The notes below the pieces were generated by a model. It searched no databases, had not been told where the DNA came from, and worked only from the letters and a program-made list of their open reading frames with translations. Made by a program: the position numbers and the translations under genes. A stretch of 64,000 bases of DNA from Methanomicrobiales archaeon (GTDB lineage Archaea; Halobacteriota; Methanomicrobia; Methanomicrobiales; JACTUA01). Position 1 is the stretch's first letter; every line of letters starts with the position of its first letter. The DNA is taken from contig JACTUA010000004.1 of the NCBI GenBank assembly GCA_015660865.1, positions 20,111-84,110 of the forward strand. The letters are read 5' to 3'. Of this stretch, positions 4,155-52,946 are shown in pieces.

Positions 4155-5063
4155 ATGAAGGAAGGCTGGTGCCTCAGGGTCCCGAAGACGTCCGGTGAGG
4201 AGAAGCGCCGGGAGCTCCTGAAGGAAGGGCTCCTCGATACGTGCCTTGTGCCCCGGACCGATGGTGACGATCTCCTCCTCCCGCTACGGGAGCCCCGCCA
4301 GGGGTGCGAGAGGGAGCTCTTCGAGGAGTTGCCGGAGAGGGCGGACCTCCCCCGGCATGATCTCATCGGGGGGATCGCTGTGATCCTGGACCCGGGCTCA
4401 GAGGGAGCTGACCTGCTCCTCCGTTCCCGGCCCTCCATCCACACGGTTCTCTTCCCCGAGGGGCCGGTAGAGGGGGAGTTCCGTACCCGGAGGTTTGTCG
4501 TCGCGGCCGGGGAACCGACCATGAAGACCCGCTACACAGAGTACGGCCTCCGGTTCGAGATCGACCTGTCAGAGGCCTACTTCTCACCCCGGTTATCGGG
4601 CGAGCGGCAGCGGGTCCTTGCTCTCATGGACGAAAGAGAGCGGGTGCTGGACATGTTCGCCGGGGTGGGACCCTTTGCCATCACCCTTGCAGGACGGGCC
4701 GGTGTGGTCTATGCCGCCGATATCAACCCCGGGGCCGTGAGCCTCATGATAGAGAACATCTCACTCAACCGGGTGAAGAACGTCCTCCCCATCCTCGCCG
4801 ATGCCGCGCGGCTCGCCGGTGTCCTCCCGCGCGGGTTCGACCGGGTCGTGATGAACCTCCCCTTCGGAGCAGTAAAGTTTCTTGATACAGCTCTTGACCT
4901 GTGCAGGCCGGGCGGGACCATCCACCTCTATGCGATGGTCGGCGAGGAGGGCGCCCTCACCCCGATCCTCCGGGATAAGGGGTGCCGGATCATCGGGGAG
5001 AGGGTGGTCCACACCTATTCACCGTCGGAGTGGCTGGCGGTGTACGATCTTAAGGTTGGATAA
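4155..5063 (+). CDS. trm5: tRNA (guanine37-N1)-methyltransferase, Trm5/Taw2 (Met-10+) family
   Basis: 302 aa with the motifs YFSPRLSGERQRV and SAM motif VLDMFAGVGPFAI typical of archaeal Trm5 family enzymes. Confidence 0.8.
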   Translation: MKEGWCLRVPKTSGEEKRRELLKEGLLDTCLVPRTDGDDLLLPLREPRQGCERELFEELPERADLPRHDLIGGIAVILDPGSEGADLLLRSRPSIHTVLFPEGPVEGEFRTRRFVVAAGEPTMKTRYTEYGLRFEIDLSEAYFSPRLSGERQRVLALMDERERVLDMFAGVGPFAITLAGRAGVVYAADINPGAVSLMIENISLNRVKNVLPILADAARLAGVLPRGFDRVVMNLPFGAVKFLDTALDLCRPGGTIHLYAMVGEEGALTPILRDKGCRIIGERVVHTYSPSEWLAVYDLKVG

Positions 5064-26214: not shown

Positions 26215-26287
26215 GCCGCCATAACTCAGTTGGTAGAGTGGCTGGCTGTTAACCAGCATGTCACAGGTTCGAGTCCTGTTGGCGGCG
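26215..26287 (+). tRNA. tRNA-Asn (anticodon GTT)
   Basis: A cloverleaf folds by hand: acceptor GCCGCCA/TGGCGGC, anticodon loop CTGTTAA, T-loop TTCGAGT. Confidence 0.9.
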
Positions 26288-26300
26288 CTCTCCTCTTTCC

Positions 26301-26375
26301 GGGCCCGTAGCTTAGTCTGGTAAGAGCGCCCGGCTCATAACCGGGCGGTCGTGCGTTCGAATCGCATCGGGCCCA
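26301..26375 (+). tRNA. tRNA with CAT anticodon (elongator Met or agmatidine-modified Ile2)
   Basis: Acceptor GGGCCCG/CGGGCCC, anticodon loop CTCATAA, T-loop TTCGAAT. Met versus Ile2 identity cannot be decided by eye. Confidence 0.85.
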
Positions 26376-27409: not shown

Positions 27410-27426
27410 AAGGGCTAAGGATCTGC

Positions 27427-27735
27427 GGGGACTAGCCCGGGTGGTTCGACGTCACCTGTCACCCGAAACCGCCGGCACGCGGGGGGCGAAGTCCGAGGGA
27501 GACTCCGGCGACCTGCCCACGTTTTGTGCAACCTGACAAAGAAGCCTCGTCCTGTGAGGTCAATGGACAGGGATCGAAGCCCCGGAGGGGGCGGGGACCT
27601 GCAGCCGCGGGGACCGGTTCAGACCCGGAAGGGAGCAGACTTACCGCGGACATCTGGCGCCCACGGGGGAGCGGGGTGGAGGAGGGCTGCACAGGCAGGA
27701 GCAGGGTACGTGGTGGCCACCGAGGACGTGTCCCC
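27427..27735 (+). ncRNA. ffs: Signal recognition particle RNA (archaeal 7S RNA)
   Basis: The 5' segment GGGGACTAGCCCGGGTGGTTCGACGTCACCTGTCACCCGAAACCGCC resembles the archaeal SRP RNA 5' domain. It also contains the conserved helix-8 motif CCCGGAAGGGAGCA. The 5' GGGGAC pairs with the 3' GTCCCC. Overlapping track ORFs are compositionally non-coding. Confidence 0.85.
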
Positions 27736-27749
27736 ATCTTACGATTATC

Positions 27750-31979: not shown

Positions 31980-32048
31980 ACCCTCTGTCAAACGAAACAT
32001 TGCAGCAGCCAGAAAAATTACGCGGCTTGAGGTGAATCCTGGAATCCC

Positions 32049-32061
32049 GAATTTATATATT
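32049..32061 (+). promoter_or_regulatory. BRE/TATA-like box (GAATTTATATATT)
   Basis: It ends only 8 nt before the ATG at 32069, which implies that the DUF2061 gene really starts at the in-frame GTG at 32102. Confidence 0.4.
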
Positions 32062-32068
32062 CGGCCCC

Positions 32069-32326
32069 ATGCAATGCATCCACCAGAAGGGGTGTACTCC
32101 CGTGGTATCAGGGATCTTTAAGGAGTATCTGGGCCGGTCCGTGGTCAAGGCTGTCAGCTACCGGATTATCGTAGTGGCCGCGGACTTCGCAGCGGTGTAT
32201 CTCTTCACGAGCCGGGTGGATATAGCCCTGGGTTTCGTGGTAGTCAGCAACATCTACACCTCGGTCCTCTACCTCCTCCATGAGCGGTTCTGGGACAGGG
32301 TGGCATGGGGGAGGGGGGTAAGCTAG
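32069..32326 (+). CDS. DUF2061 family small membrane protein
   Basis: VKAVSYRIIVVAADFAAVYLFT...LYLLHERFWDRV matches the DUF2061 pattern. The likely true start is GTG 32102. Confidence 0.65.
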   Translation: MQCIHQKGCTPVVSGIFKEYLGRSVVKAVSYRIIVVAADFAAVYLFTSRVDIALGFVVVSNIYTSVLYLLHERFWDRVAWGRGVS

Positions 32327-32342
32327 GCGATCCGGATCCTCG

Positions 32343-32352
32343 GAATTTATAT
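32343..32352 (+). promoter_or_regulatory. BRE/TATA-like box (GAATTTATAT)
   Basis: It is centred about 29 nt upstream of GTG 32377, consistent with a leaderless transcript. The same decamer occurs at 32049. Confidence 0.4.
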
Positions 32353-32376
32353 CCCCCTCCACCGATACCTCCCTTC

Positions 32377-32748
32377 GTGCTCGAGAGGCAGGAGCGCACG
32401 GCCCTCATCCTCCTCATCACCGTCCTTGCCATCCTCTTCGCAGGCCACCTCATCCTCACTGCCCTCGGAAATGCACCCTTTGCAGCCCCGTACAGCGAGA
32501 GCTCACGCGAAGGGGATCTCGTCGTTGTCGTCGGAGTTGTGGAAGGGATCACCCCGACCTCCACCGGTGGCCACCTGCTTCTGTCGGTGAACGGCACGAG
32601 GGTCTTCCTACCCTCGCCAGCCTCCAAAGAGGTCAGCCTCCAGGTAAACGAGACCGTCCGGATTTACGGGATCGTCCAGGTCTACGAGGGAAAGAAAGAA
32701 GTGGTGGTGAGGAGTGCAAGCGATGTACAGAAGGATCTGTTCCCGTAG
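32377..32748 (+). CDS. Membrane-anchored OB-fold-like hypothetical protein
   Basis: In-frame GTG of track ORF 32305..32748. It has an N-terminal TM (TALILLITVLAILFAGHLILTAL) and a beta-rich C-terminal region (LVVVVGVVEGI...VRIYGIVQVYEGKKEVVV). Confidence 0.5.
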   Translation: MLERQERTALILLITVLAILFAGHLILTALGNAPFAAPYSESSREGDLVVVVGVVEGITPTSTGGHLLLSVNGTRVFLPSPASKEVSLQVNETVRIYGIVQVYEGKKEVVVRSASDVQKDLFP

Positions 32749-32934
32749 TGTTCTCCCGGCGGACGGACTGTCATCGTATTCATGATCACGAGATCTCCCC
32801 TTCACCTGCTCCCAATTCCACCGGAAAAAGTCCTTTCAACCATGAAATGAAACCGGGACTCAAGGATAAAGGATTTTTACTATATAGACTTTAGATACTG
32901 TATAGGCAGTCCCTAACCCGGAGGAAGGCGATTT

Positions 32935-45358: not shown

Positions 45359-45785
45359 CCCCTTTGTTTCCACTGGAATGGTTCGGGAATGTGATATCTC
45401 GGACGTTATGAGAATTTTCATCAGGCTTAGTGGGATGATCTCCCTCCTACCCGGGTTCATGCTCCCGGTTCATTTCGATCTATTTTTATATGTTATAAGA
45501 GAGAAAAACAACCGGCTATTTCTATTAAAATATCAAATTAAATATCAGACTATTTTATCATCTCCATGAGAAACAAGGGGGGGTGGGGGATTATCCTTCC
45601 GGGACTATCCACTGTTTCAAGGGGCCCTGAAGTGCGGTTGTGTGGGTGGATATACCCGAGCCAGTCGAAATGCCCTCAGGGACAGGCAGAAGGAACGGGA
45701 AAAATGGCATCCCGGGAAATCTGGAAATCAACTTATTTCGTGAAAATTTACCAAGATAAAAGGATCTCCACAGGAAGTGGGGGGG
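45359..45785. other. oriC: Replication origin (oriC) upstream of orc1/cdc6: inverted ORB boxes flanking an AT-rich DUE
   Basis: The ORB at 45359-45378 reads TTCCAGTGGAAACAAAGGGG on the minus strand. The AT-rich block is at 45478-45560. Plus-strand ORBs are at 45561-45583 (TCTCCATGAGAAACAAGGGGGGG) and 45765-45785 (TCTCCACAGGAAGTGGGGGGG), and a degenerate box is at 45607-45624. Confidence 0.8.
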
Positions 45786-45861
45786 TTGTAAACAGAGAGA
45801 AAACGATCAGCTTAAGAAGGCCCGGAACCATATCACCGGAGCAACCTCTTCCACTGCAGAT

Positions 45862-47142
45862 ATGCCCGAAGAAAACTCGTCCATGGGACTTTTCCAGAAA
45901 TATCTCGTGAATAAGAATATATTCAAGAACCGGGAGGTCCTGCGACACTCGTACCGGCCGAATATCCTCCCCCACCGGCAGCCCGAGATCAATACGATCG
46001 CCTCGATCCTTGCCGCCTCCCTCAAGGGTGAGACCCCGTCGAATATCCTGATCTATGGCAAGACGGGGACCGGGAAGACCGCCTGCGTCCGATACGTCGC
46101 CGACGAGCTCGAGAAGGCGAGCCAGGAGACCGTCATTCCCTGCCACGTGATCCACCTGAACTGCGAGGTCATAGATACCCAGTACCGGGTCCTCGCCCAG
46201 ATCGCGAAGAACCTCGAGGATCACGACGAACGGCCGAGCGACGGGACGCGCAGCAACATCCCCTTCACCGGGTGGCCCACCGACCAGGTCTACATGGAGC
46301 TGAAGAACCTCCTCGAATCCGTGGGAGGGGTGATGGTGATCGTGCTTGATGAGATCGACAAGCTCGTCAAGAAGAGCGGTGACGAGACCCTCTACAACCT
46401 GACCCGGATCAACTCGGATCTCAAGGACTCGAAGGTCTCCATCATCGGCATCTCGAACGATCTCAGGTTCACCGATTTCCTGGACCCCCGGGTCCTCTCC
46501 TCCCTCTCGGAGGAGGAGCTGGTCTTCCCGCCCTACAATGCCCCGCAGCTCTGCGACATCCTCCAGAAGCGCGGGGAGGACGCCTTTATGGAGGGGGTCA
46601 TCGACCCCCCGGTCATCCCCCTCTGCGCTGCCCTCGCCGCCCAGGAGCACGGGGACGCGAGGAGGGCCCTCGACCTCCTCCGGGTCTCGGGTGAGCTCGC
46701 CGAGCGGGAGGACGAGAGCCGGGTGGCCGAGAAGCATGTCAAGATGGCCCAGGAGAAGATCGAGACAGACAGCATGATCGAGTGCGTCTCGACCCTCCCG
46801 ACCCAGTCGAAGGTGGTCCTCTACTCCATGCTCCTCCTCGAGCATATCGGGAAGAAGATCTTCACCTCGGGGGAGGTTCTCCAGGTTTACCGCGAGGTGG
46901 CAGGCACCCTTGACGTAGACGTGCTCACGAACCGGAGGATCACGGACCTCGTCTCCGAGCTCTCGATGCTCGGGGTGATCAATACCCGGGTCGTCTCCAA
47001 GGGGCGGTACGGGAGAACCAAGGAGATGTGGTTCGATATGATGACGAACCGTATCTGGGAGGTCCTCTCCAAGGACCAGCGCCTCTCGCGGGATACCCTT
47101 ATACAATTGGATACCAACCGGTTGAAGGCATTGGTCAGGTGA
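45862..47142 (+). CDS. cdc6: Orc1/Cdc6 replication initiator
   Basis: 426 aa with Walker A GKTGTGKT, Walker B VIVLDEID and a C-terminal winged helix. Confidence 0.95.
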   Translation: MPEENSSMGLFQKYLVNKNIFKNREVLRHSYRPNILPHRQPEINTIASILAASLKGETPSNILIYGKTGTGKTACVRYVADELEKASQETVIPCHVIHLNCEVIDTQYRVLAQIAKNLEDHDERPSDGTRSNIPFTGWPTDQVYMELKNLLESVGGVMVIVLDEIDKLVKKSGDETLYNLTRINSDLKDSKVSIIGISNDLRFTDFLDPRVLSSLSEEELVFPPYNAPQLCDILQKRGEDAFMEGVIDPPVIPLCAALAAQEHGDARRALDLLRVSGELAEREDESRVAEKHVKMAQEKIETDSMIECVSTLPTQSKVVLYSMLLLEHIGKKIFTSGEVLQVYREVAGTLDVDVLTNRRITDLVSELSMLGVINTRVVSKGRYGRTKEMWFDMMTNRIWEVLSKDQRLSRDTLIQLDTNRLKALVR

Positions 47143-47146
47143 TCCC

Positions 47147-47638
47147 ATGGACGAGAAAGACCATGAGATCCTCCACCTTCTCGAGGAGAACGGCCGGCTC
47201 CCCCTCCGGGAGCTCGCGACAAGCCTCGCTCTCCCCGAAGACGAGGTCGAGGAGCGCATCCGGGCTATGGAGGAATCCCGGATCATCCGCAAGTTTACCG
47301 CGGTCGTTGACTGGGAGCGTGCCGGGAACTCACGGGTCTCGGCCATCATCGACCTGAAGATCGCCCCCGAGCGGGACTTCGGGTACGACAAGATCGCCGA
47401 GCGTCTCGCACGCTTCCGGCAGGTGAAGGCGCTCTACCTGGTCTCCGGCGTCTATGATCTCCAGCTCCTTGCCACCGGTCAGGATATGAACGAGGTCTCG
47501 CGGTTCGTCTCCGAGCAGATCGCACCCATGGACCATATCAGGGAAACGGCGACCCACATCATCATGAAGATCTACAAGGAGAACGGGAACCCCTTCTTCG
47601 AGAGGGAGGGCGGGGAGCGACTCCCCATCACGTTCTAG
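47147..47638 (+). CDS. Lrp/AsnC family transcriptional regulator
   Basis: 163 aa with an N-terminal HTH (DEKDHEILHLLEENGRLPLRELATSL) and a RAM/ACT-like domain. Confidence 0.85.
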   Translation: MDEKDHEILHLLEENGRLPLRELATSLALPEDEVEERIRAMEESRIIRKFTAVVDWERAGNSRVSAIIDLKIAPERDFGYDKIAERLARFRQVKALYLVSGVYDLQLLATGQDMNEVSRFVSEQIAPMDHIRETATHIIMKIYKENGNPFFEREGGERLPITF

Positions 47639-47647
47639 AGGCAGATA

Positions 47648-48814
47648 ATGAGGGAATACGGCTCAGCGAGGGCACGTGCGATCCCGCCCTCGGGGATACG
47701 GCGGTTCTTCGACCTCCTCCTCACCATGGAGGATGTCATTTCCCTGGGCGTCGGGGAGCCTGACTTCGAGACGCCCTGGAACGTGGCCGAGGCAGGGATC
47801 TATGCAATCGAGCAGGGCCACACCTCCTATACCTCGAATAAGGGCCTCCTCTCCCTCCGCCAGGCCGTGGCGAGGGACCTCTCCATGCGGTACGGGATCT
47901 CTTATGATCCCGAAGAGGAGATCGTGATCACGAGCGGGGTCTCCGAGGCAGCCGATATCGCCATCCGCGCACTCGTGGACCCTGGCGACGAGGTCCTGGT
48001 GGCCGAGCCGTCCTATGTCTCCTACTCCCCCTGTGTCACCCTGGCGGGTGGCAGACCTGTACCGGTCTCCTGCCATGAAAAGGACGAGTTTAGGCTCACG
48101 CCCGAAGGCCTGATGGAGAAGGTCACCCGGAAGAGCCGTGTCCTTGTCATGAACTTCCCCAACAATCCCACGGGAGGCATCATGGGGACCGATGAGATCA
48201 ACGCCATTGCTGAAGTGGTCGTGGACCATGATCTCTTGGTCATCTCCGATGAGGTCTACTCCGAGCTCACCTACGAGGGGACCCATGTCGCGGTCGCATC
48301 CCACCCGGAGCTCTGGGACCGGACCATCACCATGAACGGGTTCTCCAAGGCCTACGCGATGACCGGCTGGAGGATCGGCTATCTCTGTGCACCGAAACAG
48401 ATCTCCGAGCTGGCCCTGAAGATCCACCAGTACGTGATGCTCTGCGCACCCATCATGGGCCAGATGGCCGCTATCGAGGCCCTGAGGAACGGGGAGGAGG
48501 AGAAGAACGCCATGGTCAGGGAGTACCGGCACAGGCGCAACTTCTTCGTGGAGGGGCTGAACAGGATCGGGCTCACCTGCCACCTGCCCAGGGGAGCATT
48601 CTATGCGTTCCCCTCCGTGGCTTCCACCGGGCTCTCGGACCTGGAGTTTGCCGAACGTCTCCTCACCGAGAAGCAGGTGGCTGTCGTCCCCGGGTCCGTC
48701 TTCGGCGAGACCGGGAGGGATCACCTCCGGTGCGCCTATGCGGTCTCGAGGGAGGACCTGGGCACGGCCCTCAAGCGCATGGAAGAGTTCCTCTCCGGGC
48801 TCAGCCGGGAATAA
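47648..48814 (+). CDS. Class I/II pyridoxal-phosphate aminotransferase (aspartate aminotransferase-like)
   Basis: 388 aa with NFPNNPTG and the PLP-lysine context NGFSKAYAMTGWRIGY. Confidence 0.9.
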   Translation: MREYGSARARAIPPSGIRRFFDLLLTMEDVISLGVGEPDFETPWNVAEAGIYAIEQGHTSYTSNKGLLSLRQAVARDLSMRYGISYDPEEEIVITSGVSEAADIAIRALVDPGDEVLVAEPSYVSYSPCVTLAGGRPVPVSCHEKDEFRLTPEGLMEKVTRKSRVLVMNFPNNPTGGIMGTDEINAIAEVVVDHDLLVISDEVYSELTYEGTHVAVASHPELWDRTITMNGFSKAYAMTGWRIGYLCAPKQISELALKIHQYVMLCAPIMGQMAAIEALRNGEEEKNAMVREYRHRRNFFVEGLNRIGLTCHLPRGAFYAFPSVASTGLSDLEFAERLLTEKQVAVVPGSVFGETGRDHLRCAYAVSREDLGTALKRMEEFLSGLSRE

Positions 48815-48990
48815 GCTATCCTCCCGAGGGACCCTGAACGGAAACCCCTCTAACCCCTTTATCTCCATTGGAGCGCATGGAACCACCGGAACGGGTATCC
48901 GGGTATTTTTATTCGGTCTCTTATTCAAGTTCAGGTGAAGGTAGGGCCAGAAAAGATCGGAAATCCATGTTTCAAAATTTGAAAGAAAAA

Positions 48991-49002
48991 GAAAGTATAT
49001 AT
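48991..49002 (+). promoter_or_regulatory. BRE/TATA-like box GAAAGTATATAT upstream of repeat R2
   Basis: An identical 12-mer occurs at 49171-49182. It ends about 27-30 nt before the repeat. AAAGTATAT also precedes tRNA-iMet. Confidence 0.4.
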
Positions 49003-49170
49003 GGTATAACTCAAAATGGCCCGTGAACCAACCCCTTTATTTCCATTGGAGCACATGGAGCCACCGGAAAGGGTATCCGGGGACAGGACATCGGGATCTC
49101 CCTTGCGATTACGCCGGAAATTGGACCCGAAAAGGGCGAATCGACCCGTTATGGGATCCCTGTGAAAGGG

Positions 49171-49182
49171 GAAAGTATATAT
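49171..49182 (+). promoter_or_regulatory. BRE/TATA-like box GAAAGTATATAT upstream of repeat R3
   Basis: See 48991-49002. Confidence 0.4.
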
Positions 49183-49671
49183 TCTCCCACAAAAAATCGG
49201 CATAATTACCCCTTTATTTCCATTGGAGCGTATGGAGGCACCGGATCGGATATCCGGGGACATTTCTTGGGATCTCCTCTCTCTACCGGCGGTGGAATGG
49301 GCCCTGAGATTCGGACCCGCCATGTTGTGCAACAGTATCTAGGGAACAGGGAGAACCGGGGAGATCGACTTCGGACATCCGGCCCGCGTTCCCCTGGCCG
49401 GGTGTTTTCCATGTTCCAGAGGAAGAAGGGGCCAGGAGAGAGAAACCGGGTTCGATCATGCGGGGAAATACCGCCGCGCCAGGGGGGCCAACCCCATTAT
49501 TTCCTGTGGAGTTCGGGATAGGAATGGACTCGTTTTTCCTTGATATGGCAGGAATTTTTTTATCTATCTTCCGCCATCTCATCGGGGAAAGGGGGATCCT
49601 TCGGGGCTGGTTCAGGAGGATCTATGGGGGGAAGGACGAGGGTTTAATACGGGGGAAAGTTCCGGCTTTAA

Positions 49672-50833: not shown

Positions 50834-51718
50834 TTGCTGAGCGGATACCGGGGTGAGATCATCAGGAAGAGTAAAGGGGAGGAACCGGGCCCTGGTCTTG
50901 AAGTCAATCGCATCCACCGTGTCGATTGCCTGGAAGGCCTCAGGGCCCTGGGGGCCGGAGTGGTGGACGTCGTTGTTACCTCCCCTCCCTACAACATCGG
51001 CATCGGCTACCATCTCTACCATGACCGCCGGAGCCGGGAGGAGTACCTCGGGTGGATGGGGGAGGTCGCCCGGCTCTCGAAGAGTGCCATGGGGGACCAG
51101 GGCTCCTTCTTCCTCAACGTCGGCGGGACGGTAACGGACCCCTGGATCCCCCTGGACGTCGCCACGGTCTTCAGGGAGCACTTCGTCCTCCAGAATATGA
51201 TCCACTGGGTGAAGTCCATCGCCATCCCCCGCGGCTCCATGGGGAAGTACCCCCACATCGGGGGGGATATTGCCGTCGGGCACTACAAGCCCATCAACAG
51301 CAGGCGGTACCACCACGACTGCCACGAGTTCATCTTCCACTTCACCAAGTGCGGGGATGTCGGGCTGGACAAGCTCGCCATCGGGGTGCCGTATCAGGAC
51401 AAGTCCAACGTGACGAGGTGGAAGGGCGTGCGGGGGGATCTCCGCGACAGGGGAAACACCTGGTTCATCCCCTACGAGACCATCCGGACGGCCCGCCCCC
51501 ACCCGAGCGCCTATCCTATCGGCCTCCCAGAGATGTGCATCCGGGACCATGGGGTAGAAAGTACACGCCTGGTACTCGACCCCTTCATGGGGATCGGGGC
51601 CACGGCTGTTGCCTGCGTGAGGCTCGGGGTGCCCTTCATCGGGTTCGAGATCGACCCCGAGTACATCGCAATCGCCGAGGAGAGGATCGCGGCCGAGAAG
51701 GGAGAGGGGCGCAATTGA
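50834..51718 (+). CDS. Beta-class DNA methyltransferase (SPPY motif IV before FxGxG motif I; N4-C/N6-A type)
   Basis: 294 aa. Motif IV is VVTSPPYN, motif I is [12 protein letters not shown], and there is a C-terminal [10 protein letters not shown]. The frame has no in-frame ATG near the N-terminus, so the TTG at 50834 was used. Confidence 0.78.
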
Positions 51719-52871: not shown

Positions 52872-52946
52872 AGCGAGGTGGGGTAGTCAGGATATCCCGA
52901 CGGGCTCATAACCCGTAGATCGATGGTTCAAATCCATCCCTCGCTA
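52872..52946 (+). tRNA. Initiator tRNA-Met (anticodon CAT)
   Basis: A1:U72 acceptor (AGCGAGG/CCTCGCT), three consecutive G:C pairs in the anticodon stem (ACGGG-CTCATAA-CCCGT) and T-loop TTCAAAT are archaeal initiator hallmarks. Confidence 0.9.

Follow-up and report, generated by a model that had tools for sequence, protein, structure and literature searches.

A conserved array of putative Orc1/Cdc6 boxes coupled to promoter-like elements downstream of cdc6 in an uncultured clade of Methanomicrobiales

Introduction

Why should an archaeal genome carry a regular array of origin recognition boxes (ORBs) 3.3 kb away from what looks like a complete replication origin core? The question is raised by a 64,000-nt stretch of DNA from a Methanomicrobiales archaeon (contig JACTUA010000004.1 of assembly GCA_015660865.1, forward-strand positions 20,111-84,110), which was analyzed as a whole and is termed the window below, all coordinates being counted from its first nucleotide. 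Here, an intergenic region 1.7 kb downstream of the initiator gene cdc6, beyond an lrp gene and an aminotransferase gene, holds several ORBs in tandem. How archaea control the initiation of replication is little understood, with almost nothing on record about the regulation of initiator availability beyond a few haloarchaea and the Sulfolobales, and no origin of the Methanomicrobiales appears to have been characterized experimentally. The genes that frame the locus are as follows:

45862-47142: orc1/cdc6
47147-47638: lrp/asnC
47648-48814: aminotransferase gene
48815-49671: intergenic region holding the array, 857 bp, from the aminotransferase gene to the DUF362/ferredoxin gene
49672 onward: DUF362/ferredoxin gene

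Comparative analysis indicates that the array is an accessory cluster of strong putative Orc1/Cdc6 boxes, situated outside the origin core and under purifying selection, in which each non-first box (the distinct terminal box described below apart) is linked both to a promoter-like element and to another conserved motif in the DNA. On balance, we favor the reading that these are ORB-gated promoters and that the cluster would act as a regulatory sink and sensor for the cdc6-linked origin region.

Results

A tandem array of ORBs in one orientation

An initial annotation, made from the letters of the window, had described near-identical repeats in the same orientation at intervals of 178 and 177 bp, and this description holds: there are three direct repeats of 64 nt each, starting at 48853, 49031, and 49208 at exactly those spacings and with 81-83% identity to the reference copy. 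Each repeat starts with the 20-mer CCCCTTTATTTCCATTGGAG, the minus strand of which reads as the short-spacer archaeal ORB CTCCAATGGAAATAAAGGGG. At up to three mismatches, CCCCTTTATTTCCATTGGAG matches the window at 48854, 49032, 49209, 49492, and 45359, the last lying upstream of cdc6, and no match was obtained in 100 dinucleotide-preserving shuffles. A 26-nt weight matrix built from all ORBs of the window and the related loci finds seven sites in the 64 kb, namely 45356(+), 45559(-), 45763(-), 48851(+), 49029(+), 49206(+), and 49489(+), the signs being those of the matrix. Both searches bear out the earlier identification of these elements as ORBs matching the one at 45359, and the presence of a second cluster beyond the cdc6-lrp-aminotransferase block is upheld by the four matrix sites in the array and by their conservation in relatives. 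The array thus contains four of the seven matrix ORBs in the window; the other three surround an AT-rich element upstream of cdc6. The array boxes show the features of the halo/methanomicrobial short-spacer type, i.e., the dyad TCCANTGGA, a short A-rich spacer, and the G-string, with matrix scores of 34-43. All four point the same way, an orientation that they share with the left ORB of the origin core at 45359. Orc1/Cdc6 is the presumed ligand of these boxes. Individually, they are:

48854-48873, minus strand: ORB core of R1, canonical reading CTCCAATGGAGATAAAGGGG; one mismatch; matrix score 34.5
49032-49051, minus strand: ORB core of R2, perfect match to the consensus CTCCAATGGAAATAAAGGGG; matrix score 43.3
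49209-49228, minus strand: ORB core of R3, perfect match to the consensus CTCCAATGGAAATAAAGGGG; matrix score 39.9
49492-49511, minus strand: terminal ORB of a distinct conserved type, CCCCATTATTTCCTGTGGAG; three mismatches; matrix score 34.0; no extension and no TATA

The R1 unit begins 40 nt past the aminotransferase stop codon, lacks a TATA of its own, and has orthologous first units in relatives. What had been taken for a partial fourth repeat does contain an ORB, at 49492, but it lacks the extension that follows the other boxes and is better described as a separate, conserved terminal type. Many arrays of relatives carry an inverted mini-ORB, TTCCAGTGGA, about 22 nt past the terminal ORB; this mini-ORB is degenerate in the window. 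The terminal ORB (49492-49550) and the left ORB of the core (45359-45400) also share a dyad-side flank, TTCGGGA...GGAATG, that is unlike the extension of R1-R3, which suggests the existence of two ORB classes. A suspicion that the 3' half of the units harbors further, weak ORBs (GCCnGGAAAG motif) was not borne out, there being no matrix match at a score of at least 8. Helical phasing of the 178-bp spacing was likewise not supported (Rayleigh R = 0.17 at a 10.5-bp period, p ~0.29).

Promoter-like elements at a fixed distance from the ORBs

Each non-first unit carries a purine-rich B recognition element (BRE) followed by a TATA box (AAAGTATATAT), with the TATA starting 33-36 nt ahead of the ORB in the window. 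As the initial annotation had pointed out, R2 and R3 are preceded by an identical 12-mer, GAAAGTATATAT, which occurs at 48991-49002 and 49171-49182, i.e., 29 and 26 nt before the respective C-runs. The looser pattern AAAGNWTWTAT has three matches in the window against an expectation of 0.02. The two elements are:

48986-49002, plus strand: BRE and TATA of unit 2, AAAAAGAAAGTATATAT; the TATA 7-mer starts 36 nt before the ORB; predicted transcription start at ~49025-49026
49166-49182, plus strand: BRE and TATA of unit 3, AAGGGGAAAGTATATAT; the TATA 7-mer starts 33 nt before the ORB; predicted transcription start at ~49205

The BRE/TATA-like boxes of the initial annotation are real, and they keep their position in about 30 units from relatives. 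The consensus of non-first units in this segment is AAnAAGAAAGTATATAT. The TATA 7-mer mostly starts at -36 relative to the ORB, with -33, -35, and -40 as the main alternatives, -33 being the value typical of the unit class of R3. The distance from TATA to ORB is conserved, the overall length of the units being more variable (standard deviation 5.2).

These boxes combine an A/T-rich TATA, a purine-rich BRE directly upstream of it, a fixed orientation, and a likeness to the promoters of RNA genes in the same window. In the promoter of the signal recognition particle (SRP) RNA gene, the first base of a TATTTAT (GGTATTTATC) stands 29 nt ahead of the RNA's 5' end (27425), and the tRNA-Met gene at 52872 is preceded by a TATA of the same type, AAAGTATAT, 41 nt upstream (the box compared being AAAGTATATC). 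Because the boxes have purine-rich sequence on their upstream flank and not on the other, the promoters would be directed towards the ORB. Calibration on the SRP RNA promoter places the starts at ~49025 and ~49205, in agreement with the sites predicted in the initial annotation and 7 and 4 nt before the C-runs, which would put the ORB at about +5 to +27. We consider it likely that the boxes function as promoters. A scan for sigma-70-type promoters found nothing, a model that is in any case not applicable to archaea.

Two further features may concern transcription at the array. In R1, the hairpin described below is followed by a run of five T residues (48906-48910), a terminator-like arrangement that may end the upstream operon. 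The second is a palindrome:

48970-48984: AT-rich palindrome of 15 bp without mismatch, TTTCAAAATTTGAAA, immediately before the unit-2 promoter

TTTCAAAATTTGAAA is found nowhere else in the 64 kb and recurs with small changes in many relatives, once per array and upstream of the BRE of one unit. It could be a transcription-factor site, and a gene for an Lrp/AsnC protein lies 1.3 kb upstream.

A conserved extension beside the ORBs

In R1-R3, the ORB is followed by a 30-nt extension of the form CACATGGARCCACCGGA-N7-TCCGGG:

48874-48905, plus strand: R1 extension; palindrome CCGGA-N7-TCCGG at 48886-48902
49052-49083, plus strand: R2 extension (CACATGGAGCCACCGGAAAGGGTATCCGGGGA); palindrome at 49064-49080
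49229-49260, plus strand: R3 extension; palindrome at 49241-49257

CCGGA-N7-TCCGG occurs exactly three times in the window, always inside the repeats, where 0.46 occurrences are expected. The initial annotation had read it as a hairpin with a variable loop; the palindrome is indeed present in all three repeats, but it probably does not act as an RNA structure. In an ungapped alignment of 20 units, examined with RNAalifold and by counting pairs, the CCGGA/TCCGG stem is paired in 96% of cases, all four departures break a pair, and none of the nine predicted pairs shows a compensatory change. In single-sequence folds, the predicted 71-nt RNAs are no more stable than their shuffles (z of -0.05 to +0.9), and no Rfam match to the array was obtained either for 44-54 kb at E<=1 or for the whole window at the gathering score. 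A structured small RNA is thus not supported, for want of covariation, excess stability, and an Rfam match, although the hairpin may still have an RNA role, since invariance alone does not speak against one. Arms that stay paired without compensation around a free spacer are the pattern of a sequence-specific site in double-stranded DNA, and the simplest view of the extension is that of a recognition element in the DNA duplex, providing either further contacts for Orc1 or the site of a second dimeric protein.

Conservation and phylogenetic range

Species-representative genomes were scanned with the Cdc6 protein, yielding 12 loci, all from metagenome-assembled genomes (MAGs) of Methanomicrobiales, and a scan of metagenomes with the ORB-plus-extension pattern added 16 further loci. 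All metagenome matches except L014, which is apparently unrelated, represent this one locus, the first unit following immediately on the stop codon of the aminotransferase gene. A scan of viral contigs for the unit gave no match. A dispersed or mobile element was rejected on these grounds, the metagenomes having yielded a single type of locus besides L014 and the viral contigs nothing.

The array is kept in about 23 related loci (L001-L006, L012, L013, and L015-L028), in the same synteny and orientation and always after cdc6-lrp-aminotransferase; L002, L013, and L015-L028 stem from samples of wetland and peat. These arrays hold three to five ORBs in the same orientation, or fewer on incomplete contigs. 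The loci of 93-97% Cdc6 identity from the genome scan that reach the region, together with the metagenome loci, contain 73 distinct units, of which 52 have the extension. For the 44 spacings below 200 bp, the mean is 177.5 bp, and the standard deviation is the 5.2 given above; the gaps of 245-347 bp look like decayed units. Units of the same rank share their flanks across genomes, which indicates that the array is old and has been kept copy by copy rather than homogenized. The consensus of the non-first units runs AAnAAGAAAGTATATAT-nn-ATAA-nnnn-AAAAGG-n9-CAA, then CCCCTTTATTTCCATTGGAG, then CACATGGARCCA CCGGA-N7-TCCGG GGGCATTT. Conservation by column is distributed as follows:

ORB: 90-99%
CACCGGA and ATCCGGG: 87-99%
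BRE/TATA: 55-86%
rest of the unit: 30-50%

The initial annotation had proposed aligning relatives to see which parts of the repeat covary. Such an alignment singles out the ORB and the palindrome arms, and it lends no support to the ATG frame or to covariation in the hairpin. Three types of unit depart from the consensus: the first units of arrays lack the TATA; the penultimate unit of five-ORB arrays has TATA and ORB without the extension; and the last ORB is of a distinct type, CCCCATTATTTCCTGTGGAA.

By group and by Cdc6 identity to the window, the ORBs downstream of the aminotransferase gene are distributed as follows:

Array clade (93-97% Cdc6 identity where scored): three to five downstream ORBs, extension, ~178-bp spacing
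Relatives at 81-84%: two units of TATA plus ORB, separated by 276-278 bp
Methanoculleus, Methanofollis, Methanogenium-type, and other MAGs (70-80%): one to three downstream ORBs, no extension
Methanosphaerula- and Methanolinea-type (74-75%): no downstream ORB

The full array is, by these comparisons, confined to one uncultured clade, the closest cultured genera standing at 74-77% Cdc6 identity, and the gene order MoCF, cdc6, lrp, aminotransferase is common to all groups compared. In the loci at 81-84% identity (L029 and L035), each downstream ORB has a TATA ending about 25 nt upstream and the extensions have diverged; the coupling of TATA and ORB thus predates the 178-bp array. The position of an ORB downstream of the aminotransferase gene is kept, in simpler form, in the Methanoculleus, Methanofollis, and Methanogenium-type loci. 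Homology between the inter-ORB spacers and those of Methanoculleus-type loci was considered and given up, as the alignment was too noisy to support it.

Two observations from these genomes stand apart from the array itself. Methanoculleus, Methanofollis, and other relatives share a conserved motif, GTCTGACAA(ACGG), 15-25 nt ahead of their first downstream ORB (L031 9032-9055, L032 of Methanofollis aquaemaris CP036172 9010-9037, L008 5138-5161, L009 ~13180, and L033 3580-3625, where it is duplicated), and the window has a weaker CTGAACGGA at the corresponding place, 48835-48844. The Methanolinea mesophila locus L037 has no ORB downstream of the aminotransferase gene and carries three ORBs in the same orientation at 4974, 5270, and 5541, with intervals of 296 and 271 bp, in the left part of the region upstream of cdc6, possibly an independent array of spaced direct ORBs.

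A canonical origin core upstream of cdc6

The architecture of an archaeal oriC, with inverted ORBs about 200 bp apart around an AT-rich element, is found in the window upstream of cdc6 (45359, 45479-45560, and 45562):

45359-45378, minus strand: left core ORB, in the orientation of the array ORBs
45479-45560: AT-rich unwinding element, 80% A+T over 80 bp, overlapping the least stable 60-mer of the window
45562-45581, plus strand: right core ORB, inverted relative to 45359
45767-45786, plus strand: second right-hand core ORB, its G-string abutting the cdc6 TATA

Every related locus that reaches far enough has the same plan upstream of cdc6, one ORB being followed about 200 bp away by one or two inverted ORBs. 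The array shows no such plan: its four ORBs lie on the same strand, and its AT-rich spacer, 48949-49008, falls between direct ORBs. GC and Z-curve skews over the 64 kb have a broad minimum at 38-44 kb and do not separate 45.5 kb from 49 kb.

The TATA-like box TTGTAAAC at 45787-45794 is probably the cdc6 promoter; close relatives have TTATAAAC or TTATAAAT in its place, and Methanoculleus and Methanofollis have TTATCAT or TTATATC. As the ORB at 45767-45786 abuts this box, autoregulation of cdc6 by Orc1 is plausible. The TATA being downstream of that ORB, the ORB itself is probably not transcribed, and the idea that array RNAs pair in antisense with the cdc6 leader was dropped for this reason.

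Other features of the window

The neighborhood contains several genes for stable RNAs:

26215-26375: tRNA-Asn and tRNA-Met
27425-27737: gene for the archaeal SRP RNA (158 bits for Rfam RF01857), ~18 kb away from the origin core
52872-52946: tRNA-Met

Just beyond the array lies a gene for an N6/N4 DNA methyltransferase (50834-51718), for which no partner was recognized; Pfam gave no match for the 167-aa open reading frame (ORF) that follows it. A methyltransferase gene of the same family comes directly after the aminotransferase gene in locus L036, which is of the Methanosphaerula type. Dam/SeqA-like control through GATC, which such a neighbor might bring to mind, was rejected, since the array has nine sites against 8.0 expected at the window-wide rate. 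CTAG is strongly avoided, with 14 sites in the window. A second long stretch, 31980-32934 (955 bp), contains no ORF of at least 150 aa and has an AT-rich patch at ~32825-32866; it may exceed 48815-49671 as a noncoding region.

Discussion

An accessory cluster with proposed ORB-gated promoters

In the reading that we favor, the BRE/TATA of each non-first unit would drive transcription into an ORB at about +5 to +27 of the transcript. Given this position, we propose that bound initiator and the transcription pre-initiation complex would be mutually exclusive. The array would hold Orc1/Cdc6 away from the true core upstream of cdc6, as oriC2D probably does in Haloarcula hispanica, and Orc1 occupancy would gate local transcription or be relieved by it. 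As in a titration cluster, four initiator boxes lie outside the core and near cdc6. The density is 4 boxes in the 857 bp of the window's array, relatives having 3-5 boxes in each array, and no further weak ORBs were obtained at a matrix score of at least 8.

Several points weigh against this reading. Promoters, a conserved extension, and a conserved length of the units would all be superfluous in a pure sink, so that titration by itself leaves part of the array's anatomy unexplained. ORBs are also less dense here, at four in 857 bp, than in oriC2D, which has 11 in 722 bp. A run of at least four T residues follows the extension in only about 8 of 30 non-first units and is absent after R2. Finally, the Methanosphaerula- and Methanolinea-type genomes have no ORB here, which means that the element is not essential to the order as a whole.

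Alternative explanations

The conserved extension may have a further partner. The non-ORB half of the repeat (CCGGA-N7-TCCGG, possibly together with a TTCCAT-N8-ATGGAA dyad) might be the site of a separate dimeric DNA-binding protein, which would make the array a cooperative platform for two proteins; candidates are the adjacent Lrp/AsnC protein, a second Orc1 paralog, and a centromere-like segregation factor. Conserved arms around a variable 7-nt spacer, with changes that are never compensated, are the usual pattern of a protein site, the motif is limited to the array within the 64 kb, and lrp/asnC always adjoins cdc6. Against this, no partner protein was identified, no copies of the motif occur near the lrp or aminotransferase promoters in the window, and no ParA/SegA-like gene is found among the called neighbors. 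Moreover, the extension has diverged at 81-84% Cdc6 identity and is absent from Methanoculleus and Methanofollis, which keep the same lrp gene. We entertain this possibility tentatively, and a second protein on the extension would be compatible with a sink, an origin, or small-RNA genes alike.

More doubtful is a place of the array in the origin proper, the initial annotation having already suggested a second or split origin. The array could be a second initiation site, or it could form the far half of a split origin with the cdc6-lrp-aminotransferase block looped out, and the R1-R2 spacer would then serve for unwinding. The strong array ORBs are oriented like the left ORB of the core, and only two 60-mers in the 64 kb are less stable than the R1-R2 spacer (48949-49008), a 40-bp segment at 48970 reaching 82% A+T. 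Among relatives, the corresponding intergenic region of the Methanoculleus-type loci L031 and L008 contains two ORBs in inverted orientation, about 215 bp from each other, and many arrays end in an ORB followed by the inverted mini-ORB. However, all four array ORBs point one way, with no inverted pair around the AT-rich spacer; that spacer consists mostly of promoter and palindrome; and the spacers between later units are not AT-rich (GC of 0.50-0.62). A complete canonical core is available 3.3 kb away, and the GC skew of the window does not discriminate between the two sites. A second or split origin is not favored by the architecture of the array.

It is less probable still that the units are tandem small-RNA genes, unit 1 being derived from the 3' untranslated region of the operon and units 2 and 3 having promoters of their own, with the ORB serving only as an Orc1 operator that ties the RNAs to the cell cycle. 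What functions would then be an RNA that opens with the ORB sequence and continues into the extension. Such a view would account for the BRE/TATA at a fixed distance and orientation, for its coupling to the ORB already at 81-84% Cdc6 identity, for a conserved transcribed block of about 55 nt that is followed in some units by GCATTTTAT, and for the hairpin and T5 of R1. It meets the difficulty that Rfam offers no match at E<=1, that changes in either predicted helix only break pairs and are never compensated, and that the 71-nt RNAs are no stabler than shuffles (z again -0.05 to +0.9). The T-run is inconsistent from unit to unit and missing after R2, and the conserved block is mostly ORB, which is explained independently at the DNA level.

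Comparably improbable is an elaboration in which the array works as an occupancy switch. With every ORB set directly behind a strong promoter, abundant Orc1/Cdc6 would fill the array, be sequestered there, and silence the unit promoters, until polymerase sweeps the initiator off and delivers a pulse of Orc1 to the core; the ORB-containing RNAs could then serve as decoys or signals. We know of no described equivalent of such a transcription-coupled titration device for an archaeal initiator.

The ATGs that the initial annotation had noted at 48877, 49055, and 49232 are each preceded by GGAG 4 nt upstream, and the ORFs that begin there run to 49, 36, and 36 codons, with the N termini MEPPERVSG, MEPPERVSG, and MEAPDRISG. 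However, the notion that each repeat encodes a micro-protein of 36-49 residues with the N terminus ME(P/A)P(E/D)R(V/I)SG can be dismissed on comparative grounds, for no more than 36 of the 52 units with an extension have the ATG (the others having CGG, CTG, ACA, GTG, AGG, ACG, GAG, or CCA), column entropies by codon position (0.79, 0.51, and 0.76) show no third-position excess, the sixth residue may be R, W, C, S, P, I, or G, the first nine codons are interrupted by an in-frame stop in two units, the units do not align past the ninth codon, and the synonymous pattern of the R1/R2 differences does not generalize.

Significance

Returning to the accessory cluster with its proposed ORB-gated promoters, the locus offers a clean, conserved, and testable case in which strong ORBs stand apart from the core, overlie the predicted starts of promoter-driven units, and are joined to a second DNA motif. 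If Orc1 binding and transcription do prove exclusive, the level of the initiator would be linked to transcription, in analogy to the DnaA-box promoters and datA of bacteria, by a device built from eukaryote-like parts (Orc1 and TBP/TFB). The locus also counsels caution in annotation: not every ORB cluster near cdc6 is an origin, and conservation that acts on the DNA itself can, as a side effect, give rise to short ORFs and hairpins within repeats of this kind.

Comparison with known systems

The canonical archaeal oriC, known from Sulfolobus, Pyrococcus, and haloarchaea, has inverted ORBs flanking an AT-rich DNA unwinding element beside orc1/cdc6 (PMC4010727). The array shares with it the ORB family (dyad TCCANTGGA, A-rich spacer, and G-string) and the linkage to cdc6, and such a core is indeed present at 45359-45786. 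It differs in that its ORBs are direct and in that its only AT-rich stretch lies between ORBs of the same orientation and coincides with a promoter-like element.

Orc1-2 of the Sulfolobales recognizes a different, short motif at many dispersed damage-response promoters and is not known to act on ORBs in a tandem array beside cdc6. As a paralog of Orc1/Cdc6 that regulates transcription, it provides a precedent for control through promoter-proximal motifs bound by an Orc1-type protein (PMC6061795, PMC9738581).

In Escherichia coli, DnaA boxes outside the origin, as at datA, sequester the initiator, and boxes over promoters couple transcription to its level. The analogy is cited in PMC3936714. 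The likeness to the array is one of function only, DnaA and its box being unrelated to Orc1 and the ORB, from another domain of life, and without any relationship in sequence or evolution.

The closest known case appears to be oriC2D of Haloarcula hispanica, an ORB cluster directly downstream of cdc6E that was shown genetically to lower the activity of oriC2, probably by titrating Cdc6E; downstream ORBs are noted there at many haloarchaeal ori-cdc6 loci as well (Wu et al. 2014, PMC3936714). Both are intergenic ORB clusters downstream of an initiator gene and apart from the core upstream of that gene. Here, however, lrp and the aminotransferase gene separate the array from cdc6, the 857 bp contain 4 ORBs as against 11 in 722 bp, and the ORBs run in one direction at a regular spacing of about 178 bp. 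Furthermore, the present array has a BRE/TATA at a fixed distance and a 30-nt extension, and the passages of PMC3936714 that were consulted describe no such coupling for oriC2D. ORB clusters downstream of an initiator gene are already known, and it is above all the fixed arrangement of promoter-like element and ORB, together with the extension, that sets this array apart.

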